Shown: positions 47,805-64,000, counted from the stretch's first letter. The stretch: DNA of 64,000 nt from Phycisphaerales bacterium (GCA_003597935.1 QZJT01000058.1:3639-67638); one strand, 5' to 3'. The notes: a model not told the origin generated them from the letters alone. Translations and numbers: made by a program.

Positions 47805-49526
47805 TCACTCGGGATAACGCTCGTCCCGGTGATTCTCCCCATGGCACAGCAGGGTACACGAGCCGCTCAGGCGGCCGGTGTCACGGAACTCCAGTCGCCC
47901 GCTCTGGGGGTCCGGCCGGACAATCGTCGTATCGAAGTTGATCAGCCGGGTGTGGTCGCCGCTACCGCCCGGCACCAGGTTGCTCACGCCGTGGGGGGCA
48001 TGGCAGGCGGAACAGGGCGTGCGCTCTTCGACAATGTGCATCCGATGTTCGGAGAAGCTCTCGTCGGAGAGGATGCTGGTGCGCTCGTGACACTTGTAGC
48101 ACAGCGCGTAGGCGGACGCGGACTCCGGCGTGTCGTCGTCGGTGACGTATTCGCGTTCCAGCAGGAAATCGTAGATCGAGCCGTGGGGGCCGTCCGGCCC
48201 CGCGCCGCCGCCCCGCTGCCCGCTGTCGCTGTTGTGGCAGTCGGTGCAGCGCAGGAGCGATCCGCGCGGCACGTTGGGGACCAGGCTGGGCGACTCGGAG
48301 CTGACCGACGCCGCCGCCACGGGGTGGAAACTTTCGTTGGTGGGCTGAAACAGCAGGCGGACGTTTGACGTCTGCGACTGACGCGGCACGGCGCCGGGCA
48401 CCGATACCGCCGTATCGGCGTGGCAGCGATAACAGACCTCGTACTCGAACTGCGCTTCCTCGACTTCGGCGCCGCCGGACGACACGCCGCGCGTCTTCAG
48501 CAGCGTCTGTCCGATGCGGCGGTAGCCCCCCCCCCGTTCCGGCGCCATCGCCGCGTGGCCGTTGTGGCAGTCGGCGCATTCCACGTGGGTGTTGTCCACC
48601 AGCGCGGGTTCCGCCGGGTCGTGCCTGGCGCTGTAGCGTCGCGGGTCGTGCCCGCTGATCTTGTCCAGCTCCGTCTGAATGTCGGTCTTCGCCACGCGTC
48701 CGTCGTGGCAGATCAGGCAGTTTCTCTCCTCGTCGCCGAAGAGCAGCAGCCGGTCGGGTCCGCCGGCCGTGTGCGGCCGGTGGCAGCTTCGGCAGGCGTT
48801 CTGGGCCACGGTGTCGTAAGGCCAGCCCCCCTCCGAGTGCCCCCCGACCCGGGCCTGCGACAGCCGGTGCGACGCGCCGGCCCAGCCGCTCATCTGGTGG
48901 CAGGTCGTGCAGAGTTCGCCGAACTCGTTGGGCAGGACGAGGAAGTCGCCGTACTGATCGTTGTGGGCGTCGTGACACGCGGTACACTGAAGCTCGCCGT
49001 CCGTACCGAGCCGGATCTCAAGCGGCAGCGAGTGCGGGTCCGCGAGCTGCCCGTCGGCCAGCGCCAGCCCTGACGTGTAGAAGAAGCTGACCGGGTGATC
49101 GTCCGACAGATCCGTGCCCAGGTGGGCCGGACCGGACGGCAGGTAGTCTCCCGTGCGCATCTGGATGCGTTCCGCCCGGCTCAGGACGCTGCCCAGCGCG
49201 ATCGTACCGTCGTGACAGCTCAGACACAGTTTGCTGGCACCGGTCGGCTGGCCGGGTCTGGCATCCAGCGTCGACGAGCGGTAGATGCGGTAGTTGGCGC
49301 TGGGCACGTCGCGGTTCCATAGCGGGCGCAGTCCGCTGGTGTTGTGCGGCGCGTGGCAGAAGATGCAGACCTGCCGCTCCGTCTGAGCGCGCACCTGTCC
49401 CGGTCCGCCGGCGGACAGGTTGTGGACGGTGTCGGAGACGTGGAGCTGGGCGGCGGCGGTGGAGAGGAACACGAGCGTGAAGATTGCGACGGCTGTCCCA
49501 GGGACCGCCAGGCTCGCACCTGGCAA
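47805..49526 (-). CDS. multiheme c-type cytochrome, 11 CxxCH motifs plus one CxxxCH
   Basis: Motifs counted by eye: CIFCH, CLSCH, CTACH, CTTCH, CRSCH, CLICH, CADCH, CYRCH, CTDCH, CYKCH, CSACH and CTLLCH. I propose a TTG start at 49526 before the signal-like PGASLAVPGTAVAIFTLVFLSTAAA. The upstream ORF extension is REP sequence. Confidence 0.85.
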   Translation of the reverse strand: MPGASLAVPGTAVAIFTLVFLSTAAAQLHVSDTVHNLSAGGPGQVRAQTERQVCIFCHAPHNTSGLRPLWNRDVPSANYRIYRSSTLDARPGQPTGASKLCLSCHDGTIALGSVLSRAERIQMRTGDYLPSGPAHLGTDLSDDHPVSFFYTSGLALADGQLADPHSLPLEIRLGTDGELQCTACHDAHNDQYGDFLVLPNEFGELCTTCHQMSGWAGASHRLSQARVGGHSEGGWPYDTVAQNACRSCHRPHTAGGPDRLLLFGDEERNCLICHDGRVAKTDIQTELDKISGHDPRRYSARHDPAEPALVDNTHVECADCHNGHAAMAPERGGGYRRIGQTLLKTRGVSSGGAEVEEAQFEYEVCYRCHADTAVSVPGAVPRQSQTSNVRLLFQPTNESFHPVAAASVSSESPSLVPNVPRGSLLRCTDCHNSDSGQRGGGAGPDGPHGSIYDFLLEREYVTDDDTPESASAYALCYKCHERTSILSDESFSEHRMHIVEERTPCSACHAPHGVSNLVPGGSGDHTRLINFDTTIVRPDPQSGRLEFRDTGRLSGSCTLLCHGENHRDERYPE

Positions 49527-49572
49527 CTTGGCGGCGCGATGCTGCGATAGAGCGCGTTGTCCCGCAGGATGC

Positions 49573-49619
49573 TCCGCGCGGGCTGACCTGCCTGCCGGCA
49601 GGCAGGAGCCACGCGGCTC
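49573..49619. repeat. REP family B, long form
   Basis: TCCGCGCGGGCTGACCTGCCTGCCGGCAGGCAGGAGCCACGCGGCTC. Confidence 0.65.
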
Positions 49620-49656
49620 GCTCACTGGGCGTGCGCGCGCGCGCCAAAGCGGTGAG

Positions 49657-50691
49657 TTAGGGCTCAGTCTGGGGTGGTTGCGATGCGTCGGGCACATAAT
49701 CGAACACCTGCAAACGTTGATTGTATGAGTCGCAGATCCAGATGCGGTCCGTGTCGTCGATGAAGATGCCTCCGGGCAGCCAGAACTGGCCCGGGCCGGT
49801 CCCCTCTTCGCCGAAGGTCAGCAGCAGCCGGCCCTGGCGATCGAAGATCTGCACGTTCTCGAAGCGGGCGTCCACCACGTAGACGTGTCCGTCGCGGTCC
49901 AGCGCGATCGCCTTGGGCAGGGCCAGGTCTCCGAAGGCGTCCCCCGCCTGCCCGAAGGCCGCTTGCGGCGCTGCCAGTCGCGACAGGCGCTGCACGCGAT
50001 GGTTGCCGGCGTCGACGACCCACACGTCCTCTCCGGCGACGACCAGATCGCAGGGGAAGTTGAACTCCCCGGCGCCGCCGCCGCGCCGTCCCAGCGTGCG
50101 CACGGGCCGCCCGTCGGCGGTCAGGACCTTGACGTCATGGGCCAGCACGTCCACGACGTACAGCTCGCCGACCGCGTCGTCCCAGAAGACGCTCACCGGC
50201 CTCTGCACGTCGTCGGGCAGCGCCAGGGCCGAGTCGCTTCCGCCGTTTTCTGGCGAAACGCGGTAGACGGCGCCTTCTTCCGAGTCGCAGACGTACACGG
50301 CGCTGCCCGGCCCCACGCAGACGTCGACCGGCGTCAGCAGCGCGGCGTCGCCGACGTGCGTGATCCTGCGGTGCTGGCGGCGCTGCAGATCGAACAGGTG
50401 GACGCAGCGCCAACCGGGATCCGCCACCCACACGTATCGTCCGTCGCGGGACCGGACCGCGGAACGCGGACCGTTCAGCCGGTCCGGTTCCTTCGAGCCC
50501 AGCAGCAGGCCGCCCAGCCCCTCGAAGGGCTTGGGCGCCGGGCGCAGGTCGGCCGAGGTGCTGATCTGCCCGACGTAGCGGATGCGGGCCGGCTGACCGT
50601 CCGACGGCCACACGATCTGCGGGTGGGTCTCCTCGAAGATCGGCTTCAGCGGGCGCTGGCAGCCGGCGGTGACGAGTGCGATGGCGATCAT
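49657..50691 (-). CDS. NHL-repeat beta-propeller lipoprotein
   Basis: The ATG at 50691 gives MIAIALVTAGC (lipobox). NHL-like blades include RYVWVADPG, AVYVCDS, ELYVVDV, DVWVVDAGNHRVQRL, HVYVVDARFENVQIF and RIWICDSYNQRLQVF. Confidence 0.8.
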   Translation of the reverse strand: MIAIALVTAGCQRPLKPIFEETHPQIVWPSDGQPARIRYVGQISTSADLRPAPKPFEGLGGLLLGSKEPDRLNGPRSAVRSRDGRYVWVADPGWRCVHLFDLQRRQHRRITHVGDAALLTPVDVCVGPGSAVYVCDSEEGAVYRVSPENGGSDSALALPDDVQRPVSVFWDDAVGELYVVDVLAHDVKVLTADGRPVRTLGRRGGGAGEFNFPCDLVVAGEDVWVVDAGNHRVQRLSRLAAPQAAFGQAGDAFGDLALPKAIALDRDGHVYVVDARFENVQIFDRQGRLLLTFGEEGTGPGQFWLPGGIFIDDTDRIWICDSYNQRLQVFDYVPDASQPPQTEP

Positions 50692-50733
50692 CGTCAGCGC
50701 GAATGTCAGGAGAGGCGTTGCGGGGTGGCCCGT

Positions 50734-50808
50734 GCAATCCGAACCGCGACGGTGAGGGAGCGGGCCGGGCGCGATCTCGCTATCCGAACCGCGACCGTAA
50801 GGGAGCGG
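50734..50808. repeat. two REP family A copies
   Basis: GCAATCCGAACCGCGACGGTGAGGGAGCGG and CTATCCGAACCGCGACCGTAAGGGAGCGG. Confidence 0.75.
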
Positions 50809-51056
50809 CTTCTGCAGAGCGTTCACATCTGGAACGCGTTTCGAATCGTGGGAGAGCGCGCCGTGATCCACGCCTCCTCCGCCCCTTCGGGGCGGACGGT
50901 TGGGGGGGGGCGCTATCCACGGGTTCCGCTTCACCCGCCTTACGGCGGGCTTCGCTCCACCCGTGGCTACACTCCTTGGCCCCTCCGGAGCCGCAGAGTG
51001 GGCCCATGGCCCCTGCGAGGCAGCGGACTCGGCCGATGCCCCCTCCGGGGCCGCAG

Positions 51057-51176
51057 ACACCGGTTCAAAACCGGTGCCACACGGAGACACCGGTTCAAAA
51101 CCGGTGCCACACGGAGACACCGGTTCAAAACCGGTGCCACACGGAGACACCGATTGAAAACCGGTGTCACACGTGG
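51057..51176. repeat. four tandem 30-bp units, each with an internal hairpin (CACCGG-TTCAAAA-CCGGTG)
   Basis: ACACCGGTTCAAAACCGGTGCCACACGGAG occurs three times, followed by one degenerate copy. On the minus strand each unit reads TGGCAC-N5-TTGA. Confidence 0.85.
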
Positions 51177-51318
51177 GTCGTCGCCTCGCACGGGTCGAGG
51201 CGGATGGGTTGCGCCTAATCGGTGTCATTGGCCACACGAGTCTCTTCGTTCGTTCTTCGCCATTCGACATCCGCTTTTCATTCGTCATTCTCCTGCATCG
51301 ACCTTGGCCCTTCGCCCT

Positions 51319-53388
51319 TCAGAACCTCCTGCGCACCTGCACCAACAGGGCCGAATGGCGGTTGTCGGTGAAGTCGTCCTCGAAGGTGCCGTATTCGTAC
51401 GTCAAGCGGAACGACGTCTTCCGCACGTTGTATTCCAGCGATACGTCGGCGTCGACGCCGCGGTCGTCGCCGCTGAGCGTGTCCTGCAAGCGGCGATACT
51501 GCACCGCCCCCTCCACGTTGAGTCGGGCCGTGATCGGGTGGCGGTAGCGGCCTTCCAGCGACAGCAGCCGCGTCCGCCGCTCTTCGGCCGTCTCGAAACG
51601 GATGTCCGACCATCGGGCCGTCAGGGCGGCCGTGGCCCCGAAGTCGAAGCGGTGCGTGTACCCGGCATTGAGGCGTAGCGCGGTGAACGGGCTGATGGTC
51701 GATTCGTGGTCCTCGTGCTCGGCCCCCAGCGTCAGCCCGCCGCGGCGATACTCTACGCCCAGAATGTGTACGGTGAGGTCCTCTTCCTGAAAGCCCGTCG
51801 AGCGTTGCGGCGAAATCACCTGGTCCTGGTTGCGGAAGCGATAGTACGGCGTCAGGCCGAAATCGAACTCCTGGCGGATGCCGAAGCCGTGGCTGGTCGT
51901 GTCCAGCGTGAAGTCGCCGCCGACGTTGAGCACGTAGTCGATCAGGACGGTCTGGCCCTCGGCGATGAGGCCGGTGGGGTCGCGCTCGATCTCGATCCGG
52001 TTGCCGAAGACGCGGACGCGGTAGTCGCGGCCGGAGCCGTACAGCGTCGTGGCCTGCTCGTCGGTGATGACGATGCTGGCGACCTCAAGGTCCTGGGCCT
52101 GGAGGATGATCGGCTCGCCGTCCTGGAAGCGATGCGCCTCGTCGAACACCTCGACGCGTTGATCGCCGCCGCGGCGCTCCTGCCGCTGAAACGCGAAGCG
52201 GTAATCGGCCCGCAGCACGCCCCAGCGGTTCTTCTTGCGGTAGTCGAAGGAGGCGTTCCAGCCCACGCGGTCGACGTCCGCTCCCGATCCGAACGTCTGC
52301 TGCTGGCCGTACGCGCCGACCTGCGACGTGAGGCTCTCGTACAGTTGGTGCTCCAGCGATCCGCTCAGCAGCACCGAGCGTTCATCGATCGGGTCGCCGC
52401 CCGCCAGGCTCCCCTGTGTCCGGTCCAGCCACTCGAAGTCGAACCAGGAGCGCAGGTTCTCCGCGTGTTCGAGCCGCAGCCGCTCACGCCATTGGATGCG
52501 CTCGATATCGAACGTGCCGCGCTGATCGAGGAAGCTGAGCGTCGATTCGAGGTGGTGCTGGTGAAGCTCGCCGAAGGCCAGCCGATGGGAAAGCGAGGCG
52601 TCGTCGGAGTCGTAGTTGAATCCGAAGGGCGCCTGCTCGATCGACTGATGGCTGTAGCGCAGTCCCAGCGTGTTGGACGGGCTGAAGTTGTAGGCCGTGT
52701 CGAATCCGAAGACGGTGCTCTTCTGCTGGCGCTGCTCCTCGTCGGAGCCGAGCGCCTCGAACTCGCTGGTGGTGTGCTCGAAGTTGATGGAGGTGGGCGT
52801 CTTCTCGCTGACGTAGCGCCAGTCGAAGCCGTAACCGGTGGTGATCGTCTGCAGGCTGGGCAGGAACGGACGGGCGTCGATCGAGCGCCGGCGGCGGGCG
52901 AAGACGCTGGCCGGATAGGGCTTTTTTTTCAGGAACGTGGCGGAGAGGTCGAACTCATCGATGCTGCCGTCGTCGCTGCTGCGGCGGGTGACGCCGTCGC
53001 GCGTGTCCTCGAACTCCTGCTGCAACAGTCCGAACGTCCCCGCCAGGGCGAACTCCATCAGGTTCGGGTGATAGGTGTAGCCGTCCAGCGTCAGGCTCAG
53101 CTCCTCCTCGAAGATCGTCTCGTCCGTCGAGACGTCCGTCCCGCCCACCTTCGACCGCTGATCGCGGGAGTTCTGACGGGCGACGAAATCGAGGTATCCG
53201 CCCACGTCGGTGACGTGTACGTCGCCGACGCCGCGGCGACGGGCGCCTTCGCCGGTGCAGCCGGCGGTGCAGATCGTCAGCGCCAGGCCGGACAGGCACG
53301 CCAGGGCGATGAGACGTTCGGCGCCGGCCGCGGTTCCGGTCGTCCACGGGGGGGGGGTGCCCAGAACCTGTCGGCGTCGGTGGCTCAA
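51319..53388 (-). CDS. outer-membrane beta-barrel protein (porin-like, 689 aa)
   Basis: The signal/lipobox-like N-terminus is LACLSGLALTICTAGC. Alternating amphipathic strands rich in Y/F/R/D run throughout. The C-terminus ends VQVRRRF (terminal Phe). Its start overlaps the stop of the pentaheme gene (ATGA). Confidence 0.75.
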   Translation of the reverse strand: MSHRRRQVLGTPPPWTTGTAAGAERLIALACLSGLALTICTAGCTGEGARRRGVGDVHVTDVGGYLDFVARQNSRDQRSKVGGTDVSTDETIFEEELSLTLDGYTYHPNLMEFALAGTFGLLQQEFEDTRDGVTRRSSDDGSIDEFDLSATFLKKKPYPASVFARRRRSIDARPFLPSLQTITTGYGFDWRYVSEKTPTSINFEHTTSEFEALGSDEEQRQQKSTVFGFDTAYNFSPSNTLGLRYSHQSIEQAPFGFNYDSDDASLSHRLAFGELHQHHLESTLSFLDQRGTFDIERIQWRERLRLEHAENLRSWFDFEWLDRTQGSLAGGDPIDERSVLLSGSLEHQLYESLTSQVGAYGQQQTFGSGADVDRVGWNASFDYRKKNRWGVLRADYRFAFQRQERRGGDQRVEVFDEAHRFQDGEPIILQAQDLEVASIVITDEQATTLYGSGRDYRVRVFGNRIEIERDPTGLIAEGQTVLIDYVLNVGGDFTLDTTSHGFGIRQEFDFGLTPYYRFRNQDQVISPQRSTGFQEEDLTVHILGVEYRRGGLTLGAEHEDHESTISPFTALRLNAGYTHRFDFGATAALTARWSDIRFETAEERRTRLLSLEGRYRHPITARLNVEGAVQYRRLQDTLSGDDRGVDADVSLEYNVRKTSFRLTYEYGTFEDDFTDNRHSALLVQVRRRF

Positions 53389-53975
53389 GGGTCACGTTGG
53401 AGCAGGAAGAACCGTCCATCCCCTCCGTGGGGGTCATGGCACACCGTGCAGGCGTCTTCCGACAGCTCCTGGTGGTGGAGACCGGCGGTCATGTCGTCGC
53501 GCGAGTGGCACTGAAGGCAGACGCCCGGCTCCGGCAGCTTGAGCAGGTGCAGCTCGACGGATGAGTGCGGTTCATGGCAGGTCAGGCAGGCGTCGACCGC
53601 GACCGGACCGTGAAGGAACATACGCTTGCCGGGCGGGTCCGCGTGGCACAGGGCGCACAGTCCCCGGTCGACGGGTTTGACCAGCCGCCCGCTGAAGGCG
53701 TCGTGACAGCCGTCGCAGCGGTCGGACGCATACGGCGGGTGTACGGAGAGCGGCTGCCGCACCACCCGCCGCCGCTCGTGGGGCGACGTGGTGTCCGCAG
53801 GCAGCGGTCTACCGCCGGGGCCCAGGGCGACCGGGACGGCGTTCGGATCGGGGACGCCGTCAAAGAAGAAGGTCAGCACCTGATAGCGCGTCGCCTGGGC
53901 GCAGGCCAGCCCCAGTCCGACCACCCCCGTGGCGCCGAGCAGATTCACGAGTTGGCGTCGTCCGTCGGACGTCAC
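53385..53975 (-). CDS. pentaheme c-type cytochrome (c3/c7-like, periplasmic)
   Basis: The motifs are CDGCH, CALCH, CLTCH, CLQCH and CTVCH. It has an N-terminal signal/TM segment. Confidence 0.85.
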   Translation of the reverse strand: MTSDGRRQLVNLLGATGVVGLGLACAQATRYQVLTFFFDGVPDPNAVPVALGPGGRPLPADTTSPHERRRVVRQPLSVHPPYASDRCDGCHDAFSGRLVKPVDRGLCALCHADPPGKRMFLHGPVAVDACLTCHEPHSSVELHLLKLPEPGVCLQCHSRDDMTAGLHHQELSEDACTVCHDPHGGDGRFFLLQRDP

Positions 53976-53998: not shown

Positions 53999-55306
53999 TC
54001 ACGCCCCCTCCGGCGCCGGTTCGGCGCCGGCGTCCTGCCCGTTGTCGGCCGGGTCGATCGGGGACTGCGCCCCCTGCGGCAGGGGCAGCGGAGTCTGGTC
54101 CTCATCCACCGGCACCGGCGGCAACGCCCGGATCTGTGATTCCGCCAGCCTGTACCCCTCGGGGAACTGCCCGAAGGCGTACACGTTGATCAGCCGCGGC
54201 CCGTACTGGCTGACCACGAACAGCAGGTAGTCCACCGAGAAGTCCTTGTGGACGTATTGCTGGAAGAACGCCGCGGAGTTCTTGTCCACGGCCAGCGTCG
54301 ACGGCAGCACCAGCGCCCCGGGCAGGTTCCCCGGCCCGGCGAAGCGCATCAGGATGTGGCCCTCCGGGTCGAACATCTGCACGATCTCGGTGGCGCCGTC
54401 GGTGACGTAGATGATCCCGTCCGGGCCGGCCCGGATGCCGCGCGGGCGGCCGAACTGGCCCAGCCGATAGCCCGGCGCCCCCTTCACCCACACCATCTCG
54501 CCCTCCAGCGTGAGCTTCTGAACGCGGAAGTTGTGCGTATCGCTGACGTAGAGGAAGCCGTCCGGGCTGGTGCAGAGGCTGCTGGGACGATTGAACTGGC
54601 CCGGTTCGCGTCCGGGGCCGCCGAAGGTGCGCAGCACCTCGCCGGTGGTGCGGTCCAGCACCACCACCTGGCAGGTCTCGTCGTTGTCGAGCACGAACAG
54701 TTCGTTGCCGTGCAGCGCCACGTCCACCGGGTAGCCGGGCTGAGGGACGTCGAAGGCGGAGACGAAGTTGTCGCTGGGTCCGAAGACGACGATCTGCCGC
54801 CGGAACGGATCGGCCACGAACTTGTAGCCCAGTGGGTCGATGCAGATGTTGATGGGCTTGCGCAGCCGGCCGGGGCCCTGATAGCCGAAGACCGAGTAGG
54901 TCTTGTTCTTGAAGTCCAGCTTGCAGATGCAGATGTCCTTGGTGTCGCAGACGTACACCGACCCGTCGTGGACGGCCACGCCGTAGGGCTTGTTGATCTG
55001 CCGGGGGGCCTGGGGTTCTTCGCCCAGGATGAACTCCTCGAACGACGTGCGCGGTGGTTCGACCTCGGCCGCGCCGCTGGCCCACGTGAGGAACTGGATG
55101 CGGGGCTTCTCCGGCGGCGAGGGGAAGAAGAGCCAGGTCGGCTCGGCTTTCTCGGCCGTTTTGCAGCCGCAAGCCAGCATCAGCAGGCCGGCCGCGGCCA
55201 CGGGGACGTAACCTGGGCGTAGACGTTGCGGCACACCTGACCTCCACTCGCCCGCGTCCGATAGAGACGGGCCCGAACCCGGGGGCGTCCTCCACCGGCG
55301 ATTCAT
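53999..55306 (-). CDS. NHL-repeat beta-propeller lipoprotein
   Basis: The start MNRRW is followed by AAAGLLMLACGC (lipobox). Blades include SVYVCDT, YKFVADPFRRQIVVF, ELFVLDN, FLYVSDTHNFRVQKL and IIYVTDGATEIVQMF. Confidence 0.8.
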   Translation of the reverse strand: MNRRWRTPPGSGPSLSDAGEWRSGVPQRLRPGYVPVAAAGLLMLACGCKTAEKAEPTWLFFPSPPEKPRIQFLTWASGAAEVEPPRTSFEEFILGEEPQAPRQINKPYGVAVHDGSVYVCDTKDICICKLDFKNKTYSVFGYQGPGRLRKPINICIDPLGYKFVADPFRRQIVVFGPSDNFVSAFDVPQPGYPVDVALHGNELFVLDNDETCQVVVLDRTTGEVLRTFGGPGREPGQFNRPSSLCTSPDGFLYVSDTHNFRVQKLTLEGEMVWVKGAPGYRLGQFGRPRGIRAGPDGIIYVTDGATEIVQMFDPEGHILMRFAGPGNLPGALVLPSTLAVDKNSAAFFQQYVHKDFSVDYLLFVVSQYGPRLINVYAFGQFPEGYRLAESQIRALPPVPVDEDQTPLPLPQGAQSPIDPADNGQDAGAEPAPEGA

Positions 55307-56446: not shown

Positions 56447-57448
56447 CTACTTCGACGCCCCGTAGACCTCTTCCAGCGCCTTGCGGTAGCACTCGACGGC
56501 CAGATCGCAGCGGCCGCGGCGCTCGTGCAGCCGGCCGAGTTCGAACAGGACCGGACCTTTGCGCGGCGACAGCTTCAGAGCGGCGTTCAGGTGTCGTTCG
56601 GCCGCCTCATCGTGGCCGCGGCGCAGCTCCAGTCGCGCCAGGGGCAGGTTCAGGATGGGCGCCATCGGTTCGTGTTCCAGGTGCGGTTGGAGGCAGGCCG
56701 CGGCGTCGTCGAGCCGGTCCAGCGCCAGGTAGACGGTCGCCAACTCGGCCGCCACCTGCACGGCGTCGCGCTGCCGCCGGATCTCCTCCAGGATGACCAG
56801 CGCGTCCTGGTACTTGCCCTCTTCGATCAGTGTGTGGGCGAAGGCCAGGCGGGTCTGAAACATGTCGTTCCAGGCGTCGCGCTCCTGACGGATCTGCTTC
56901 AGTTGCTCGTCGTGAGCCGCCTGGTCGATCCGGCCGCGGAGCAGATCGAGGTGAATGCCCACCGATCGGGCGTAACTCGGCGGCAGGTGAGGCAGTTCGA
57001 ACCGCAGCACGCCGCCGGCGTCCACCAGCAGCGTGGTGGGCGTGACCACCAGTCCGAAGTCCCCATACACCTTCCGCTTCGGATCCAGTGCGATGGGAAA
57101 GGCCAGGCCCAGATCGGTACTGACCTTGCGGTAGTGATCCCCCGCCTGATCGTCGGACGAGACGGCCAGGATGGTGACGGCGGCACGGTCGCCGCCCGCC
57201 GCGATCTGCTGCGCCGTTTGCAGCGCCGTGACCGACCCTTCCTGCCCGGGCCGCACGAACAGCAGCAGCAGCGGCCGGCCCTTGCAACCGGCCAGGTCGT
57301 ACGTCTTTCCGTCCAGCCCGTTCACCGAGAAGGGCGGAAGTGGGTCGCCGATCTTGACGTTGCGCAGCGCCTCGCTCGACTGCGTCATCGCGCCGAGGGC
57401 CAGCAGCAAAGATACCAGGGTGAGCAATCGGCCGATGGTCTGTGGCAT
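56447..57448 (-). CDS. secreted redoxin/TlpA-fold protein lacking the CxxC motif, fused to TPR repeats
   Basis: The signal is MPQTIGRLLTLVSLLLALGA. The AhpC/TSA-like fold reads PLPPFSV.GLDGKTYDL....GRPLLLLFVRPGQEGS, with no Cys at the active-site position. The C-terminus has TPR-like helices. Confidence 0.65.
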   Translation of the reverse strand: MPQTIGRLLTLVSLLLALGAMTQSSEALRNVKIGDPLPPFSVNGLDGKTYDLAGCKGRPLLLLFVRPGQEGSVTALQTAQQIAAGGDRAAVTILAVSSDDQAGDHYRKVSTDLGLAFPIALDPKRKVYGDFGLVVTPTTLLVDAGGVLRFELPHLPPSYARSVGIHLDLLRGRIDQAAHDEQLKQIRQERDAWNDMFQTRLAFAHTLIEEGKYQDALVILEEIRRQRDAVQVAAELATVYLALDRLDDAAACLQPHLEHEPMAPILNLPLARLELRRGHDEAAERHLNAALKLSPRKGPVLFELGRLHERRGRCDLAVECYRKALEEVYGASK

Positions 57449-57470: not shown

Positions 57471-58829
57471 TCACTCCCTTCTTCCGACCGAGGCGTCGGA
57501 AAGATTCACAAAGGGCGAACCGCGGTCATAACGGTACGGCTTGTGGCATCCCGGCTGGCATGCACCGCCGGTGTCCGTCTGCTGGAAGTTGATCGGGATC
57601 GCCCAGTTCCCGAAGGGCACGGAATCCCGAATGTGCTTCGGGTTGCGGCTGGCGTGTACCTCGTGACAGGCCCGGCAGGTCCGCCCTTTCGTTTCACGAT
57701 TGACGTGCAGGAAGTGGAGGTTCTGGTCGCCGTTGCGGAAGTTCGTCAGCCGGTCGGTGCGCTCGGTCCGCACCAGGTCCGGCTCGTGACACTCGAAGCA
57801 CAGGGCGTAGTTCTCCTCCTGATAGGCGGAGTAGAACTTCTCCGGGTACGCCTGCGTCAACATGCGGAACTGCGAGCCGCCGTGCGTCTCGTGACACCCG
57901 GAGCACTGTCGCTGGGCGATCGGACCGTGTACGGAGGGATTGTCGGCGAAGAGCTTTTTCAGATCGGCGATCCGGCCGTGGGGCGTGTCCAGCGGCTTGT
58001 CGTGGCAGGACAGGCACAGGCTCATGGCGTCGGTGCGGAGGATGTGCTCGAAGTCGGAAGCGTGCGGATCATGGCAGGTGGCACAGGCCTGACCGGTCAT
58101 GACGGCGTCGTGCTTGACCGCCGCGGTCCGGATGCGCTCTTCCATCTCCTGGTGACACTTGAGGCAGGCGTCCGGCCCCGACGCGGACAGCAGCATCCGA
58201 TCGTCCGACCCGTGGGCGTTATGGCAGGCGGTGCAGTCGCTGGTCACCGGACCGTGGACGTAGGCCCGCCCGGCCAGTTGTGTCTTGACGTCGGTGTGAC
58301 ACTTGACGCAGAACTCGTTGCGGGCGGCGAACAGCAGTCCCTCGTGGTCGGAAGCGTGGGCGTTGTGGCAGGCCAGACACCCGCCGGCCGCCACCGGACC
58401 GTGCAGAAACTCCATACCGTCCGTCACGCCGACGTGGCATTGCCGGCAAAGCTGTTCGACCGTCGCGGCGCGCAGAAAATACTTCGCGTCGCTGCCGTGC
58501 GGATCATGGCAGGAGACGCACTGGCCCTCGGCCTCGGGGCGGTGGCGCACGGAACCGGCGTGCCGCTCCAGGTGGCAGAACGAGCACAACGCGGCCCCTT
58601 CGGACGTCAGTCGGAACCGGTGGTCCTGCTTGCTGACCACCACGTGGCACGCTTCGCACGAGCCCACCGACGTCGGCCCGTGTACGAACGGGCGTTGCAG
58701 CAGGCCGCCGTGGCAGGCGGCATCGGTGCAACTGCCGGAGTAGTCTTTCGCCCGCGTCTGGGCGTAACTGGTGGAAACCGTCAGCAGCGCGCTGACGAGT
58801 GCGGTGTGGAGAACCGGGGACGAAATCAT
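57471..58829 (-). CDS. multiheme c-type cytochrome, 13 CxxCH plus CxxxCH and CxxxxCH variants
   Basis: The motifs are CEACH, CSFCH, CVSCH, CRQCH, CLACH, CVKCH, CTACH, CLKCH, CATCH, CLSCH, CSGCH, CFECH and CRACH. Variants are CTDAACH and CQPGCH. The repeated HGP...C..CH..H spacing is typical of doubled-CXXCH domains. Confidence 0.9.
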   Translation of the reverse strand: MISSPVLHTALVSALLTVSTSYAQTRAKDYSGSCTDAACHGGLLQRPFVHGPTSVGSCEACHVVVSKQDHRFRLTSEGAALCSFCHLERHAGSVRHRPEAEGQCVSCHDPHGSDAKYFLRAATVEQLCRQCHVGVTDGMEFLHGPVAAGGCLACHNAHASDHEGLLFAARNEFCVKCHTDVKTQLAGRAYVHGPVTSDCTACHNAHGSDDRMLLSASGPDACLKCHQEMEERIRTAAVKHDAVMTGQACATCHDPHASDFEHILRTDAMSLCLSCHDKPLDTPHGRIADLKKLFADNPSVHGPIAQRQCSGCHETHGGSQFRMLTQAYPEKFYSAYQEENYALCFECHEPDLVRTERTDRLTNFRNGDQNLHFLHVNRETKGRTCRACHEVHASRNPKHIRDSVPFGNWAIPINFQQTDTGGACQPGCHKPYRYDRGSPFVNLSDASVGRRE

Positions 58830-59944
58830 GGGTGACCTCCCTGCGAAGCGGCGTCCGTGCGGTTGAATTCCACGGTCATGGCGCCCTGGGCCGTGGTGAT
58901 CACCCGTTCCTTGCCCAGCTCGATCCAGATCGGTATCGGCGCCGCCCCCGGCGGCGCCACTTCCAGCCGCAGGGCCGGGCGGGCGTCGGCGGAAAGCGAC
59001 ATCTGGTATTCCTCGTGCAGCCGCGCGGCCGGCACGAAACGGGAAACTCGAAACGTATACTTGGATTCCGGAATGGGGACCTTTTCATCGAGCGCCGCCT
59101 GCTGCGTGGTGATGGTCCGCCCCAGCCGCTGGAAAACCTCCGGCGCTGAGCCGGCGACGCTGACCAGAACGTAGTCGGGCGTCGTTCCCACGCGCGCCGA
59201 CGGATAGAACAGCGTCACCTCGAACTGCGGCAGCGCCGTTCCACCGGTGTTCATCTCCGGGTGGCGGGCGAACACCCACCGCTCGTCCATCTTGCCTTCG
59301 GCGTGCAGCTCGACCCGGATCGCCGGGTTGACCGGTTCATCGGAGAGGTTCTTCGGCCGCCCGGTGTCGGGGTCGAGGACCAGGTGCGGATAGACCTCGA
59401 CCACCTTGATCCGACATTTCGGCTCGGCCAGTTCCCGGGTCCGGCCCACCATCAGCGGCGCCTCCGTTACGGCGTCGCCGCGGCGCACCGTCAGGGACGG
59501 GTGAAGGTCCGACTCGCGCGTGAACTGTCGGAGCAACTCGTAGCGCTGGGCCGCGTCGGCGACCGCCATGAAGCGCCAGAAACCGATCAGGCTCACCAGC
59601 CGATTGCGGGTGGGGTCATCCGCCAGCAGCCACCGTTCGTAGGTTTGTTTCGGTCCTTCGAGAACCAGCAGCGCCGCCGCCCGTCCGTCGCCCTCCCCCG
59701 CCGGGACTACCAGTTGGGTGACCACGGCCTGAGAGAGGTACCGTGTGATGCGCGGCGACGGCCAGGGTGAGGGCATGGTGACGCCGACGTCCAGTTCCAC
59801 CGGTTCCATCGAGGGCGTCAAATCCAGCACCCGCTCCGCCACCACCGGACCCGACGTCCCCTGAGCCTGGCAGAGAAAACGGTATTGAATCGCGGCCGCC
59901 GGCCCCGGATCCGGTTTCGACGTCTGCGCCGACGCGGCTTGCAC
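58826..59944 (-). CDS. periplasmic protein of unknown function (faint resemblance to the ResB/Ccs1 soluble domain); true start probably upstream at a non-ATG codon
   Basis: Its stop overlaps the next start (ATGA at 58826-58829). The frame stays open to about 60012 and there encodes RRRDPGWRRAVVCAAAACVQAASA, a signal-like segment. Confidence 0.55.
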   Translation of the reverse strand: MQAASAQTSKPDPGPAAAIQYRFLCQAQGTSGPVVAERVLDLTPSMEPVELDVGVTMPSPWPSPRITRYLSQAVVTQLVVPAGEGDGRAAALLVLEGPKQTYERWLLADDPTRNRLVSLIGFWRFMAVADAAQRYELLRQFTRESDLHPSLTVRRGDAVTEAPLMVGRTRELAEPKCRIKVVEVYPHLVLDPDTGRPKNLSDEPVNPAIRVELHAEGKMDERWVFARHPEMNTGGTALPQFEVTLFYPSARVGTTPDYVLVSVAGSAPEVFQRLGRTITTQQAALDEKVPIPESKYTFRVSRFVPAARLHEEYQMSLSADARPALRLEVAPPGAAPIPIWIELGKERVITTAQGAMTVEFNRTDAASQGGHP

Positions 59945-60029
59945 GCACGCCGCGGCCGCGCAGACGACGGCCCGGCGCCACCCTGGGTCACGGCGACGGG
60001 AACTGGGCGACAGGTTGATGTTCAGGGTC

Positions 60030-61424
60030 CTACGAATGGGGAGACTCCGTGACTTCGTTGGCCAGCTTCGACATCTTGGTGATGCCGAGTTCGTCCATTT
60101 TTCGATACAGGCTGGAAAGCCCGATGCCCAGGGCGTCGGCCGCCGCCGCCTTGTTGTGCCGGAAGGTGGAGAGCACTTTCATGACGTGCTGCCGCTCGAA
60201 CTGGCGCGTCGCCGTGCGCAGGTCCAGGGCCAGGGACGACGGCGTGATGCGGTCCCCGACGACGAACGACAGGTCCTCCAGCGTCACCGGCCGGTCATCG
60301 GCGAAGATCATCGCCCGTTCGATGACGTTCTCCAGCTCGCGGACGTTGCCGCGCCAGTGGTGGTCGCACATGGCCTGCACCGCGTCCGGTTCCAGCCCCG
60401 GGCACTTGCTCCCCAGTTCGGTGTTGTATTTGCGCACGAAGTAGTTGATGAGCGGAGGGATGTCCTCGGGGCGCTGCCGCAGAGGCAGGAGCGTCAGGCG
60501 CACCACGTTGAGGCGGTAGTACAGGTCTTCGCGAAAGGTGCCCAGGTCGATCGCCCGCTCCAGGTCCGTGTTGGTGGCGGCCACGATGCGCAGGTTGACG
60601 CGCCGCGGCCGGGTGTCCCCGACCCGCGTGACGCAGCGCTGCTCGATGGCGCGCAGCAGCACCGCCTGGCTTTTCAACGGGAGGTTGCCGACCTCGTCGA
60701 GGAAGAGCGTGCCGCCGTCGGCCGCCTCGAAGTAGCCGATCCGGTCCCGGTCCGCTCCCGTGAAGGCGCCGCGGCGGTAGCCGAAGAACTCGCTCTCCAC
60801 CAGGCTGTCGGTCAGGCCGCCGCAGTTGACCGCCACGAAGGGCTTGTTGGCGGTGACGCCGCCGAAATGGAGGGCCCGCGCCAGCACTTCCTTGCCGGTG
60901 CCGCTCTCGCCGCACAGCAGCACGTTGCTCATCGTGTGACAGATGCGCCGGATGGTGTCGACGATGGCGGTCATCGCGGGCGAGACCGCGACGATCTCCA
61001 GGAACTGGCTGGATGGCCGCACCTGCTCGCGCAGCACCTCGTTCTCGCGGGCCAGTTCCTTCTGCACCACGAACTGCTTGAGCTTGAAGATCAGCTCCTC
61101 GAACCGCACCGGTTTGCAGATGTAGTCGCGGGCGCCTTTCTTCATCGCCTCCACGGCCGTGTCCACCTCTCCGAAGGCGGTGATCACGATGATGTCCGTG
61201 TCCGGCGTGATCTTGACCGCGTGGTCGATCAGGTCCATGCCGCAAATGCCCGGCATGCGCAGGTCGGTGATGAGCACGTCCACCGACTGGTTCCGCAGCG
61301 CAGCCAGCGCCTCCGTTCCGTCGGCGCAGGCGACGACGTCGAAGTTCTCCTCGCGGAGCACCTCCGCCAGGTTGAGCCGCAGCGTGTCCTCGTCGTCCGC
61401 CAGTAATACAGTAGTCTGCGCCAT
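60030..61424 (-). CDS. sigma54-dependent response regulator (NtrC family: REC + AAA+ + Fis-type HTH)
   Basis: It has DLRMPG in the receiver domain, GESGTGKE (Walker A), ESEFFGY and GAFTGA (sigma54 contact loop), and a C-terminal HTH (AAAADALGIGLSSLYRKM). Confidence 0.9.
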   Translation of the reverse strand: MAQTTVLLADDEDTLRLNLAEVLREENFDVVACADGTEALAALRNQSVDVLITDLRMPGICGMDLIDHAVKITPDTDIIVITAFGEVDTAVEAMKKGARDYICKPVRFEELIFKLKQFVVQKELARENEVLREQVRPSSQFLEIVAVSPAMTAIVDTIRRICHTMSNVLLCGESGTGKEVLARALHFGGVTANKPFVAVNCGGLTDSLVESEFFGYRRGAFTGADRDRIGYFEAADGGTLFLDEVGNLPLKSQAVLLRAIEQRCVTRVGDTRPRRVNLRIVAATNTDLERAIDLGTFREDLYYRLNVVRLTLLPLRQRPEDIPPLINYFVRKYNTELGSKCPGLEPDAVQAMCDHHWRGNVRELENVIERAMIFADDRPVTLEDLSFVVGDRITPSSLALDLRTATRQFERQHVMKVLSTFRHNKAAAADALGIGLSSLYRKMDELGITKMSKLANEVTESPHS

Positions 61425-61426
61425 GT

Positions 61427-62845
61427 CTACGGTTCCGGGGGCGAGTCGGTGACGGGAAGCTGCACGATCATGACGGTGCCGACCCCCAGCTTCGAGTCGA
61501 ATTCAATCGATCCGCCGTGCTTCTGAATGATCCCGTAGCTGACCGCCAGGCCCAGGCCGGTGCCCCGGCCCGGCTCCTTGGTGGTGAAGAACGGCTCGAA
61601 GACGCGGCGGCCGACGGTTGGGTCGATGCCTATCCCCGTGTCTTCGATGCGGAAGACCAGCGTCCGCGCCCGGACGCCGGCCGTCACGGTCAGCGTGCCG
61701 CCGTCCGGCATCGCGTCCAGGGCGTTCAGAAGAAGGTTGATGAAGACCTGCTGGAGCTGTCCGCGGATGCCATAGGTGATGGGCAGCGACGGCGGCGGGT
61801 CGAACCGGATGCCGACGCCGCGGGCGCGACGGTCGAACGAGATCAGCCGCACGGCCTCGTCGAGCGTCTGCACCGCGTCGAGCGGCTCCCATCGCTCCAC
61901 GCCCGGGTGAGCGAGCTTGCCGAGCTGTCGGACGATCACGGAGATCCGCTGGATGTGCTTCTCGATCAGGTCCAACTGCCCGTTCATGGGCGAGTTGGTC
62001 TTGCCGCGCTTGAGCATCTGGGCGATCGACGAGATGCTGGACAGCGGGTTGCCGATCTCGTGGGCGATCCCCGAGGCGATCTGCCCGATCGCCACCATCT
62101 TCTCCTTCTCCACCAGGTGCTGGCGCATCCGCCCCACCTTGCGGGCCTCTTCCTCCAGCAGAAACATCAGGTTGTTGAAGCTCTCGCCCAGTTCGGTCAG
62201 AACGTCGGGACACGAGCGACGATACACGTCGCACGACAGACAGTGCTGAATGGCCGTGGCCGGTGAGACGTCGTCGCGGGTGGCGTGACTGAGCGCCATC
62301 ACCTGCCAGCAACGCTCGGCGGAAGCGTCGTACATCGGGCAGTCGGTCCGATCACAGTCGAAGACCTGCCGGCAGTGTACGAGGTGGGGGTTCTCGAATC
62401 GGGTCGGCGCGCTGCGGGTTGTCTGGTACGATTCGAGCACGCGCGTGAGTTGTTCCGCCGTCCGGGTCAGCGCCTGCTGCTGGCGGCGCATCACCAGATA
62501 GACGCCCAGGAACGTGGCTAGAGTCAGAAAGAGGGCCTGAGCGGTGAGGACCGTGTGCCGCGTGGCCACCGATGCCGCGGGAAAGTAGATTCGCTGGATC
62601 ACCTCAGCGCCGACCATGAAGGAAGCCAGCAGCACCAGCACGGCGGCGGAGATGAAGATCCGGTAGCACCGGCGCCTCCAGATCCGACGGGTCGCCGCTG
62701 TCGCCTCCTGGATGGACGCGCTGGACAGGGCCGTTCGGCGCCGACCGGTGGGGAAATCGGCCGTAGGCTCGGCGTGACAACATCGGGACGAACCGGCCGG
62801 GCAGGCTGTCGTCGGCGCCATAGGATGGGCGGGCTGTCCGGCCAT
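61427..62845 (-). CDS. sensor histidine kinase with two TM segments and a Cys-rich cytoplasmic module
   Basis: The H-box is ASGIAHEIGNPL, the N-box is LLNALDAM and the G-boxes are DTGIGI and GTGLGL. The Cys module reads HCRQVFDCDRTDCPMYDASAERCW...CLSCDVYRRSCPD. The start is moved to the ATG at 62845 because the track start lies inside a sigma54 promoter. Confidence 0.85.
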   Translation of the reverse strand: MAGQPAHPMAPTTACPAGSSRCCHAEPTADFPTGRRRTALSSASIQEATAATRRIWRRRCYRIFISAAVLVLLASFMVGAEVIQRIYFPAASVATRHTVLTAQALFLTLATFLGVYLVMRRQQQALTRTAEQLTRVLESYQTTRSAPTRFENPHLVHCRQVFDCDRTDCPMYDASAERCWQVMALSHATRDDVSPATAIQHCLSCDVYRRSCPDVLTELGESFNNLMFLLEEEARKVGRMRQHLVEKEKMVAIGQIASGIAHEIGNPLSSISSIAQMLKRGKTNSPMNGQLDLIEKHIQRISVIVRQLGKLAHPGVERWEPLDAVQTLDEAVRLISFDRRARGVGIRFDPPPSLPITYGIRGQLQQVFINLLLNALDAMPDGGTLTVTAGVRARTLVFRIEDTGIGIDPTVGRRVFEPFFTTKEPGRGTGLGLAVSYGIIQKHGGSIEFDSKLGVGTVMIVQLPVTDSPPEP

Positions 62846-62927: not shown

Positions 62928-62943
62928 TGCAATTCATGTGCCA
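62928..62943 (-). promoter_or_regulatory. consensus sigma54 promoter upstream of the kinase/regulator/cytochrome operon
   Basis: The minus strand reads TGGCAC-ATGAA-TTGCA, an exact match to TGGCAC-N5-TTGCA. Confidence 0.7.
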
Positions 62944-63068
62944 CCTATCCCGGCGGCCCGGGCCATGCCCGGATCGACCGGTCGATTGACAGGAACGGTT
63001 CGTGCAGGAAAACTCTCACAGGCCGGACTGCTCTGCCCGGCGGTCGGAGGTCGCATAAGGAGTGCGCG

Positions 63069-63278
63069 GTGGGACGGAAAACCCCTCGTCAACGAGTGTC
63101 TGCGCGCATCAGACACGCAGCCGTCATCGTCCTGTGTCTGCTGACGCCGGCGATGATGGGCGGGTGCCCGGAGTTTCAGGATGCATCCGTGGATGCCTTC
63201 GAGACGGCCGCACGTGGGTTGTTGGACGCGGCGCTCGATCTGTTCTTCGATCAGTTTCGCACCGATGTTTCCAAGTGA
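63069..63278 (+). CDS. small lipoprotein (69 aa)
   Basis: AAGGAG lies 6 nt before the GTG at 63069. AAVIVLCLLTPAMMGGC is a lipobox-type signal. Confidence 0.5.
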   Translation: MGRKTPRQRVSARIRHAAVIVLCLLTPAMMGGCPEFQDASVDAFETAARGLLDAALDLFFDQFRTDVSK

Positions 63279-63399
63279 CCGGGGCGTGTGGGCCTTTCGT
63301 GAACGGGAACCGGCGTTCGCCTCGGCCACAGCGGCCGCGGCGCGGGTTTTCCCCGCCTGCGGGCACTTGCGGTCGCGTCCCCGACATCAGGTTCGGCCC

Positions 63400-64000
63400 T
63401 TATGGGTCCAGGCGGTGGCAGACGAAACAGAGCGTCGACCGCTCCAGCGTGACTGACAGCAGATGATCGCTGCCGGCGTAGAGATTGTGGCATGACACGC
63501 AACTGACCCTGCCGCCCGGCAGTCGAACCAGCGGCGGCAGTTCGCTCGGCGGGCGCAGCGTAACTTCGGCGTCGCGCCCCGTGGCATACGCGATCCCCAC
63601 CGGGTGGTTCCAGTCCGCGTCTGCCAGCCCGTTTCCGCCGGCGAACCGGTCGCTGGCGCTGACGCCGTCGTGACATTCCAGACATCGGCGCGATTCTGAA
63701 TCGAGGGGATCGCCGTCCGTCGGCTGCGCCAACCCATTCTCGTTCCCGGCAAGTTCTGTCCCGAATTCGAGAACGTGGGCCCGGGGAACGGCGAGCCAGT
63801 GCATCGCGTGTTTTCCGCCGCTTTGGCCGGCGTCGTGGCAGTTGCCGCAGAAAGTGAGCGAACGGGATCCCTGCGGTCCATCGCAGCGCAGTTGCGGATC
63901 GTTCCTGAAACTGAGATCGGGGATGGCGGCGTGGCACGTCAGGCAGGTGATGGTGCCGTCGGAATCGAGCGGCCAGCCGGCCGGGATCCTGATGCCGGCG
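63400..64000 (-). CDS. multiheme c-type cytochrome, 3' part; 5' end lies outside the window
   Basis: The frame is open from the window edge to the TAA at 63400-63402. The visible motifs are CLTCH, CGNCH, CLECH, CVSCH and CFVCH. Confidence 0.8.
   Translation of the reverse strand, partial: AGIRIPAGWPLDSDGTITCLTCHAAIPDLSFRNDPQLRCDGPQGSRSLTFCGNCHDAGQSGGKHAMHWLAVPRAHVLEFGTELAGNENGLAQPTDGDPLDSESRRCLECHDGVSASDRFAGGNGLADADWNHPVGIAYATGRDAEVTLRPPSELPPLVRLPGGRVSCVSCHNLYAGSDHLLSVTLERSTLCFVCHRLDP

Follow-up and report, generated by a model that had tools for sequence, protein, structure and literature searches.

Background

The omcE clusters of Geobacter and Desulfuromonas encode a tetraheme cytochrome, OmcE, that forms the filament of PDB 7TFS and the bundle of D. 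soudanensis, and the minimal form of such a cluster has been described as two multiheme cytochromes, two propeller lipoproteins, OmcE itself and a large beta-barrel (Petersen et al., bioRxiv 10.1101/2025.10.22.684050). The same work places omcE homologs in Thermodesulfobacteriota, Pseudomonadota, Aquificota, Campylobacterota and Nitrospirota, a list that does not include Planctomycetota; it also mentions 5-heme OmcE-like proteins from uncultured phyla and, in its account of the Desulfuromonas OmcE structure, reports no tip or stopper candidate in the omcE operons examined (bioRxiv 10.1101/2025.10.22.684050). The subject of the present analysis is a run of twelve consecutive open reading frames (ORFs) on the minus strand at 47805-64000 of a 64-kb stretch of DNA, with a G+C content of ~67%, from a Phycisphaerales bacterium (GCA_003597935.1, contig QZJT01000058.1, positions 3639-67638); this whole stretch is called the window below. 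The closest described system is the OmcE nanowire cluster rather than the Pcc, Ext or MtrCAB conduits, and the twelve genes probably specify an OmcE-type machine for extracellular electron transfer (EET) in a member of the Phycisphaerae.

Other described systems use related parts. The Uet system of Ca. Tenderia electrophaga comprises a tetraheme cytochrome, a predicted 28-strand barrel, two NHL proteins, an undecaheme cytochrome, a peptidyl-prolyl isomerase (PPIase), three triheme cytochromes and a cupredoxin (bioRxiv 10.1101/2022.05.06.490989; PMC10734462). For the companion cluster of OmcS in G. sulfurreducens, a role in folding and secreting OmcS has been proposed (Shen et al. 2025, in the form in which it is cited in PMC13194489). 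Surveys based on marker genes, of the FeGenie/FEET type, flag "DFE variants" in metagenome-assembled genomes (MAGs) of Phycisphaerae (bioRxiv 10.1101/2022.03.26.485925; PMC13055281). A search of the literature returned no paper connecting OmcE nanowires with Planctomycetes or Planctomycetota.

The genes and their OmcE-like cytochromes

The cluster reads, in the direction of transcription, cytP5 (cut by the end of the window), histidine kinase, activator, hyp372, c13, redoxin-TPR, c4, NHL1, c5, barrel, NHL2 and c11, with cytP5 and the redoxin-TPR gene being variable members of the order; every feature of the cluster described below lies on the minus strand. The original prediction, which was made from the bare sequence and proposed a porin-cytochrome electron conduit, had listed twelve successive genes here, and all twelve ORFs are present. 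Its tallies of CxxCH motifs agree with a count by script, and its heme totals are correct or slightly low, c13 and c11 both carrying variant motifs in addition. The starts of the mechanically listed ORFs are too long for several genes, the likely starts being at 49526 for c11, 50691 for NHL2, 56072 for the tetraheme c4, 55234 for NHL1 and 62845 for the kinase. Two proteins of the cluster, of 372 and 689 amino acids, belong to no Pfam or NCBIfam family. What had been overlooked is that c4 and the N-terminal domain of c11 are homologous to OmcE, and it is on this homology that the placement of the cluster turns.

The gene c4 (55431-56072) is monocistronic and encodes a putative nanowire subunit with a Sec signal peptide and four CxxCH motifs, a heme number that recurs in 50 of 57 homologs. 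Searched against PDB sequences, it matches G. sulfurreducens OmcE over the full length (7tfs_A, residues 25-232, E 4e-18) as well as 9yuq_N (E 7e-16). In an alignment (A3) of the OmcE proteins of Geobacter and Desulfuromonadales with c4 and the heads of c11 from three Phycisphaerae loci, all four CxxCH motifs (C51/C54/H55, C103/C106/H107, C201/C204/H205 and C226/C229/H230 in OmcE numbering) and four further histidines (H31, H58, H149 and H208) are invariant, and c4 and OmcE end alike in CHxK. On this alignment, c4 is an OmcE-family tetraheme cytochrome that carries every heme ligand of the filament subunit.

The second OmcE-like protein is c11 (47805-49526), a predicted secreted cytochrome with 11 CxxCH motifs and a C-terminal CX3CH. 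This last motif is conserved, together with the individual heme motifs, in an alignment of 57 sequences, so that 12 hemes are likely; 11 CxxCH are found in 55 of 67 homologs. Its build is chimeric: residues 21-219 form an OmcE-like tetraheme domain, matching 7tfs_A with E 9e-29 and 9yuq_N with E 2e-23 in the PDB sequence search, and are followed by an extension with 7 CxxCH and 1 CX3CH. This tail passes the threshold of PF22113, the family of MtrC/MtrF domains II/IV (46 bits against a cut-off of 30), and has a single weak match in the six Desulfuromonadia omcE loci introduced below, namely residues 245-288 to the first cytochrome of one of them (L089, E 2.3e-7). No match to c11 was obtained by tblastn against 72,556 plasmids.

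A third relative, cytP5 (63398-64000), is truncated by the end of the window, with 5 CxxCH in the 199 amino acids that remain. In many loci the kinase is preceded by a full-length relative, and such relatives carry a signal peptide and exactly 5 CxxCH; a weak likeness to OmcE in the C-terminal half, with its three hemes (BLASTP E 5e-4), points to an OmcE-related paralog with five hemes.

Shared and divergent parts of the omcE clusters

For a direct comparison, residues 25-232 of OmcE, rebuilt from a printed alignment, were used as the query and six omcE loci of Desulfuromonadia were fetched. Their layout is resB, ccsB, a 9-heme cytochrome, an 8-heme cytochrome, a propeller, OmcE, in some cases a further propeller, a barrel of 713-759 amino acids, and glycosyltransferases. 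Beyond the tetraheme subunit with its identical heme-ligand positions, homology of clear significance extends to the two NHL/DUF5128 propeller lipoproteins and to the cytochrome of GSU0615 type.

The latter corresponds to c13 (57471-58829), a predicted periplasmic cytochrome with 13 CxxCH, one CX4CH and one CX3CH. The two variant motifs are conserved in an alignment of 38 sequences, and about 15 hemes are likely; 13 CxxCH occur in 32 of 41 homologs. With phmmer, c13 matches the first cytochrome of the Desulfuromonadia loci at E 1e-70 to 3e-87, a match that takes in the C-terminal TDTGGxCxxGCHKP block containing the CX3CH motif. Its top match among PDB sequences is chain A (MtrA) of the Mtr complex 6r2q, with E 3e-14. 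By these matches c13 is MtrA-like and orthologous to the GSU0615-type cytochrome of omcE clusters, in an expanded form with 13+2 heme motifs in place of the 9+2 of the Desulfuromonadia protein. Between the GSU0616-type cytochrome of those loci and c5 or c13, the matches are of repeat level only.

NHL1 (53999-55234) is a predicted lipoprotein with a six-bladed NHL beta-propeller (families NHL, SGL and TEN_NHL), whose lipobox cysteine is kept in 64 of 68 homologs; it matches propellers of the six Desulfuromonadia loci over its full length at E 1e-20 to 7e-32. NHL2 (49657-50691), the second NHL/DUF5128 propeller lipoprotein (NHL E 2e-16), retains the lipobox cysteine in 59 of 63 homologs and matches the GSU0617-type propellers, again over the full length, at E 1e-32 to 2e-40. 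Paired NHL lipoproteins had been thought foreign to the described modules; in fact they are part of what defines the omcE cluster (bioRxiv 10.1101/2025.10.22.684050), and NHL proteins are found in the Uet system (bioRxiv 10.1101/2022.05.06.490989) and in the DFE clusters (PMC5815863) as well.

The likeness to omcE clusters also includes an adjacent large barrel without Pfam domains and long intergenic regions on both sides of the subunit gene. The differences are equally distinct: the host here belongs to Planctomycetota, the genes stand in another order and there is no block of glycosylation genes; the barrel has no detectable similarity to that of the Desulfuromonadia; a pentaheme lipoprotein is added before the barrel, or is fused to it; a 12-heme cytochrome with an OmcE-like head and a 5-heme OmcE-like paralog are further additions; and a sigma54-dependent two-component system is dedicated to the cluster.

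The other systems stand further off. By its published description Uet, which also occurs in some Gallionella, has the same parts list, with UetA as the extracellular tetraheme cytochrome, UetC as the barrel, UetH and UetI as the NHL proteins and UetJ with 11 CxxCH, and its predicted barrel is of similar size (28 strands as against about 28-30 here). However, its PPIase, three triheme c7 cytochromes and cupredoxin are absent from the twelve genes here as judged by Pfam and NCBIfam, and its description includes no pentaheme lipoprotein, no GSU0615-type cytochrome and no sigma54 system; it is, moreover, a gammaproteobacterial system assigned to electron uptake. MtrCAB of Shewanella (6R2Q) follows the same logic of a periplasm-side multiheme cytochrome in a large barrel joined to an outer multiheme cytochrome, and MtrA is the best PDB sequence match of both c5 and c13, MtrB the best fold match of the barrel and MtrC/MtrF the type of the c11 tail. 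In contrast to MtrCAB, the barrel here falls outside the MtrB/PioB family and has more strands, c5 is a lipoprotein with 5 hemes where MtrA has 10, and neither an OmcE-like subunit nor propellers are part of the Shewanella system. The osc cluster, the companion of OmcS in G. sulfurreducens, differs in that OmcS is a hexaheme protein unrelated in sequence to OmcE. Finally, DFE_0448-0451 and DFE_0461-0465 of Desulfovibrio ferrophilus IS5 resemble the present cluster, by description, in joining multiheme cytochromes to NHL propellers, but they are described without a barrel (PMC5815863).

The barrel and its pentaheme partner

The 689-residue protein (51319-53388) had been called an outer-membrane (OM) barrel ending in phenylalanine, and this holds: it has a C-terminal Phe (...RRRF), and an AlphaFold2 model built on an alignment of 45 sequences is a large beta-barrel of about 28-30 predicted transmembrane strands (mean predicted local distance difference test score, pLDDT, 86.9; predicted template-modelling score, pTM, 0.72), with an inserted beta domain at residues ~420-490. 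The N-terminus is predicted to be lipidated, and its lipobox cysteine is kept in 60 of 64 homologs. The best fold match of the model in the PDB is MtrB (6r2q_B, E 7e-9, TM 0.46), with LptD and TonB-dependent receptors only slightly behind and ushers also among the matches; such a match speaks to size and class, that is, to a predicted barrel of the size of MtrB or LptD, and not to homology.

At the level of sequence, no model of Pfam or NCBIfam, including those for MtrB/PioB, was matched at E<=0.01, and PDB sequences gave no match either with the single sequence or with a profile. The barrel is therefore neither a member of the MtrB/PioB family, against which the original prediction had proposed to compare it, nor a recognisable exporter of an unrelated family. 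Comparison with the GSU0619-type barrel of the Desulfuromonadia omcE loci by hhalign gave probabilities of 0.9% and 8.6% when the profiles A1 or A2 were set against a four-sequence profile (A4), and 0.1% for A1 against a single sequence; these profiles are shallow, and very remote homology is compatible with such values. A profile search of 1.8 billion representatives retrieved 2411 clusters at E<1e-3, of which 883 stay below 1e-30. The full-length homologs, at 43-79% identity, are all annotated as hypothetical, and all the named ones come from MAGs of Planctomycetota or Phycisphaerae; a search with the profile of the distant barrels returned 34 proteins, of which the few with an organism name are from Planctomycetota or Phycisphaerales. 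The barrel gave no match by tblastn against the 72,556 plasmids, and its family has so far been seen only in Planctomycetota.

Immediately before the barrel lies c5 (53385-53975), a predicted pentaheme lipoprotein whose stop codon overlaps the barrel start. Five CxxCH are present in 64 of 67 homologs and the lipobox cysteine in 65 of 68, and the top PDB sequence match is again MtrA (6r2q chain A, E 1e-15). Both c13, with 140 bits, and c5, with 57 bits, stay below the cut-off of 192 bits of TIGR03508, the DmsE family, and the GSU2203-family model was matched only far below its cut-off. In four relatives (P0142, P0199, P0218 and P0280) c5 and the barrel are naturally fused in one protein, which runs from a lipobox through a pentaheme domain with the same YxVLSFFFDGVPDP motif and a proline-rich linker to the barrel. 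These fusions are strong evidence that c5 and the barrel act as a physical unit.

Conservation across Planctomycetota

Related loci were collected from neighbourhood look-ups and from a scan of one genome per GTDB species, and their ORFs were searched with the twelve proteins of the window. The collection comprised 78 distinct loci, every one of them from a Planctomycetota MAG, labelled as Phycisphaerales, Sedimentisphaerales and, for a few, Pirellulales; the scan of GTDB species genomes found no locus outside Planctomycetota and none in a cultured isolate. The impression that the genomic background is planctomycete-like is thus borne out (78/78, mostly Phycisphaerae), and so is the expectation that the genes should be conserved together in relatives. 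The gene order recurs almost everywhere in these loci; the barrel is always encoded close to the subunit gene and, in every locus examined, comes together with c5, NHL2 and c11; and a distant group (L066-L083), whose barrels are only 27-30% identical, retains the same core. The arrangement is far beyond chance.

Genes for cytochrome c maturation, either ResB/CcsA or CcmABCEF, adjoin the cluster in Phycisphaerae relatives (L002, 1-2033; L004, 648-6749; L084, 3911-6148), as resB and ccsB do in the omcE clusters of Geobacter, and the description of Uet counts ccsAB as a conserved part of that module (bioRxiv 10.1101/2022.05.06.490989). The linkage of heme-attachment genes to such clusters is thus a recurrent one. 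In some distant relatives extra cytochromes follow c11 (L005, 5770-10262; L004, 14949-16502), one of which matches the NapC/NirT family (Cytochrom_NNT); such a cytochrome could feed electrons into the pathway by oxidising quinol at the inner membrane.

Regulation and operon structure

Control by sigma54 had been proposed from the genes themselves and is corroborated by promoter elements. The kinase (61427-62845), with two transmembrane segments and HisKA and HATPase_c domains, is followed by a response regulator of the NtrC type (60030-61424), a sigma54 enhancer-binding protein with Response_reg, Sigma54_activat (E 2e-64), AAA_lid_14 and HTH_8 domains and a GAFTGA motif. Such an activator, with receiver, GAFTGA and HTH_8, occurs here together with GG-N10-GC promoters at its presumptive target genes, which is what NtrC-type regulation comprises. 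Between the second transmembrane segment and HisKA of the kinase, at residues ~158-212, seven cysteines in the pattern C-x5-C-x4-C-x9-C...C-x2-C-x6-C are invariant in 17 of 17 orthologs; this module matches no Pfam family and is probably a cytoplasmic redox sensor that binds a metal or an Fe-S cluster. No rpoN gene was seen in the 64-kb window.

A predicted sigma54 promoter (-24/-12) with the sequence TGGCACATGAATTGCA lies at 62928-62943, before the kinase and activator genes, at a distance of 83 nt from the kinase ATG (62845). It is the sole instance of TGGCAC-N5-TTGCW without mismatch in the window, and 11 of 18 related loci have a site with <=2 mismatches before the kinase. A second predicted -24/-12 element, CGGCACGGAGGGTGCT, at 56243-56258, serves c4; when the upstream regions of c4 from 9 loci are aligned, the only stretch of more than one base that never varies, the start codon aside, is GGCAC-N3-G-N2-TG. 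Some 145 nt further upstream of this promoter, at 56399-56414, an inverted repeat, TTCCCGTTCCTGAGAA, of the form TTCYC-N6-GAGAA is a candidate binding site of the activator (upstream activator sequence, UAS), and the palindrome stands at the same aligned position in relatives (TTCTC-N6/7-GAGAA). The element before the operon NHL1-c5-barrel-NHL2-c11, TGGTACGCTGCTTGTA at 55306-55321, is a degenerate sigma54-like site; better sites (TGGCAC...TTGC) stand upstream of NHL1 in five relatives (L013, L015, L031, L032 and L036), where they are visible in the intergenic alignment, and a site with <=2 mismatches is found there in 18 of 62 loci. Over 1.16 Mb of related loci, sigma54-type sites with <=1 mismatch number 48 on the coding strand versus 16 on the opposite one, and they cluster upstream of the kinase, c4 and NHL1. 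Among other candidates, triplets of TGGCACCGGTTTTGAA at 51064-51139 were considered as sigma54 promoters and rejected, as they belong to the palindromic repeat units described in the next section.

Directly 3' of c4, at 55338-55370, is a predicted intrinsic terminator, made up of a GC-rich hairpin of 12 bp (-26.9 kcal/mol, z -5.3) and the run UUUUUC after it, with an equivalent hairpin and T-run in relatives; a generic scan for sigma70 promoters and terminators was uninformative and did not pick it up. The spacing of the genes follows the same division, with ~400 nt before c4 and ~260 nt after it and median gaps of 3, 43, 4, 39 and -21 nt for hyp372-c13 and along NHL1-c5-barrel-NHL2-c11. With a promoter and a terminator of its own and this spacing, c4 forms a transcription unit by itself, an arrangement usual for a major structural subunit.

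Accessory genes and other features of the window

Between the activator and c13 in most loci lies hyp372 (58826-59944), which encodes a conserved, predicted secreted protein and whose stop codon overlaps the start of c13 here (median gap 3 nt, as above). No Pfam match was obtained with 16 homologs, nor any NCBIfam match or meaningful PDB match with a single sequence or a profile, and the single-sequence model is uninformative (pLDDT 33). Relatives carry an N-terminal, His/Met-rich GHGxHPxMP motif, which is not in the copy of the window, and a C-terminal GxHP, which that copy retains; these motifs could be metal or heme ligands. In the longer frame (58826-60010), no canonical start precedes the apparent signal peptide RRAVVCAAAACVQAASA, the only in-frame candidates being CTG or ATC.

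The redoxin-TPR gene (56447-57448) encodes a protein with AhpC/TSA-redoxin (PF00578, E 2e-13) and TPR domains and, as had been remarked, without any CxxC. It is present in a subset of the loci, comprising the closest relatives and the distant L066-L083 group.

The barrel and NHL2 are separated by a spacer of ~600 bp (50692-51318) that carries four 30-bp palindromic tandem repeats at 51055-51173, with the core GGCACCGGTTTTGAACCGGTGTC, as well as more GC-rich hairpins; the repeat unit is found nowhere else in the window, and the predicted RNA is very strongly structured (fold z-score -8.5). Besides the window, a long spacer stands at this place only in L006, the closest relative, and in L010. 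Either a REP-like insertion (repetitive extragenic palindrome) or an RNA element tuning the expression of the genes downstream could account for it. The long N-terminus of the listed NHL2 ORF was considered as part of a real protein and rejected, since it is a translation of this REP-like spacer.

Away from the cluster, the G+C content falls to 0.615-0.62 at 30000-34000, as against ~0.67 elsewhere in the window, and the large ORFs at 30084-31478 and 32073-33392, together with a 1338-aa ORF at 34903-38919, have no Pfam family; the low-G+C stretch and these ORFs may be a foreign island or genes specific to the lineage. At 25280-27166 and 27512-29914 lie two adjacent genes for Ser/Thr protein kinases of eukaryote type (Pkinase E 3e-47 and 5e-28), a class of genes that is common in Planctomycetota.

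Proposed mechanism and alternative readings

Taken together, the parts could be ordered into a path. Electrons leaving the inner membrane would pass to the ~15-heme periplasmic c13 and from there to c5, which would be anchored by lipid at the inner face of the OM and sit in or under the barrel in the manner of MtrA in MtrB, as an MtrA of half size. Exit would be through c11, whose OmcE-like head may dock onto, or nucleate, a polymer of c4 and whose MtrC-like tail would present exposed hemes, and the two propeller lipoproteins would assemble the complex or hold and stabilise it. The kinase and its activator would switch on the sigma54 promoters of their own genes and of c4, and the same pair probably also drives the NHL1-c5-barrel-NHL2-c11 operon. 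The original reading of a porin-cytochrome conduit is in part retained here, in that the locus is an EET-type cluster built around a large OM barrel with multiheme cytochromes and conserved as a whole; what changes is the closest relative, which is the omcE cluster. In its fullest form the proposal would be a self-contained porin-cytochrome-nanowire machine, with c5 as the resident cytochrome of the barrel and c11 as an adaptor that co-polymerises with c4 and forms either the electrically connected base of the filament or its heme-exposed tip, which would make these Phycisphaerae nanowire-forming bacteria under sigma54 and redox control; this joint version is offered tentatively and is more doubtful than not.

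Several points weigh against the assignment to an OmcE-type EET machine. Polymerisation of c4 is argued from the conservation of its ligands and is not a property that can be read from sequence; that c5 lies inside the barrel and c11 at the filament end is inferred; and the barrel, a core part, would on present evidence be at best analogous to that of the Desulfuromonadia, as the two have no detectable similarity. The fold match of the modelled barrel to MtrB is weak, with LptD and TonB-dependent receptors nearly its equal. All relatives are MAGs, with no cultured host among them, and deletion of related DFE cytochromes in D. ferrophilus had no phenotype on Fe(III) oxide (PMC9769857).

Certain other readings of the same genes have to be set against this assignment. 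One is that the barrel and the two propellers form a device for secreting or assembling the nanowire subunit, as proposed for OscE/F/G and OmcS, and not a conduit, so that electrons would take another route. This has a published precedent in the OmcS companion cluster (as cited in PMC13194489 and bioRxiv 10.1101/2025.10.22.684050), about 28-30 strands would be wide enough for a small folded cytochrome, and usher barrels are among the fold matches; but the translational coupling of c5 to the barrel, and their fusion in four relatives, better fit a resident cytochrome, and export and conduit roles are not mutually exclusive. We hold this device to be possible, if rather unlikely. Much the same standing, that of a serious but improbable candidate, is given to a machine of the OmcE type that takes electrons up and oxidises donors outside the cell, for instance Fe(II) minerals, cathodes or partner cells, instead of respiring acceptors there. 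Uet, with the same parts list, is assigned to electron uptake (bioRxiv 10.1101/2022.05.06.490989), and the NHL-containing DFE clusters of D. ferrophilus have been linked to it (PMC5815863); yet in surveys of Phycisphaerae MAGs the EET markers are reported to be for the most part of the reductive type, with oxidative ones rare (bioRxiv 10.1101/2022.03.26.485925). Multiheme wires are reversible, and whether electrons flow outward to minerals or humic substances or inward cannot be told from sequence.

A further alternative dispenses with the filament: c13, c5, the barrel and c11 would constitute a wire across the OM like MtrCAB or Pcc, and c4 would be a small monomeric cytochrome of the surface or the periplasm. 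The MtrA-like character of c5 and c13, the rank of MtrB among the fold matches, the c5-barrel fusions and the MtrC/MtrF-type domain of c11 all suit such a conduit, and tetraheme OmcE-like proteins are widespread and need not all polymerise (bioRxiv 10.1101/2025.10.22.684050). What tells against it is c4, which has lost none of the filament subunit's eight heme-ligand positions and ends in exactly the same way, has the promoter and terminator of its own that typify a highly expressed structural subunit, and is accompanied by the very propeller and barrel partners by which nanowire-forming homologs are picked out (bioRxiv 10.1101/2025.10.22.684050); a conduit without a filament is accordingly judged unlikely. 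That the cluster is instead a periplasmic redox or detoxification system unrelated to EET, with an ordinary porin or exporter linked to it by chance, is suggested by the redoxin-TPR protein and by localisations that are predictions, but it is very improbable. No examined locus has the barrel without c5, NHL2 and c11, in some relatives the barrel and c5 are one protein, and the barrel matches no known exporter family; c4 and c11 are homologous to a protein solved as an extracellular filament; and most loci do without the redoxin-TPR gene, which is thus dispensable. Nor do the cytochromes, taken together, come out as periplasmic respiratory enzymes of known function.

Implications for the Phycisphaerae and for OmcE nanowires

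Anoxic sediments, groundwater and lakes widely harbour Phycisphaerae, whose respiration is poorly known. Under the assignment to an OmcE-type machine, what marker surveys record in them as "DFE variants" would correspond here to a complete and conserved OmcE-type cluster, which provides a testable basis for EET in Planctomycetota beyond the anammox lineage and would raise to six the number of phyla in which OmcE-type nanowire clusters are known. Compared with the described omcE clusters, the differences lie in the phylum, the barrel family, the pentaheme lipoprotein coupled to the barrel, the chimeric 12-heme cytochrome, the 5-heme paralog and the regulation.

Some of these parts might be seen as natural experiments that are not found in Geobacter: a cytochrome fused to its barrel, a chimera of an OmcE head with a multiheme tail, and an OmcE paralog with five hemes. 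Such variants bear on how a filament is anchored, how it is charged with electrons and how it is terminated, and the sigma54 promoter, the palindrome upstream of it and the seven-cysteine kinase amount to a defined, if predicted, regulatory circuit. Were the joint reading of a nanowire machine with its own barrel cytochrome and adaptor to prove true, the extra parts would answer open questions about OmcE filaments, and the Phycisphaerae would include nanowire-forming electroactive bacteria.

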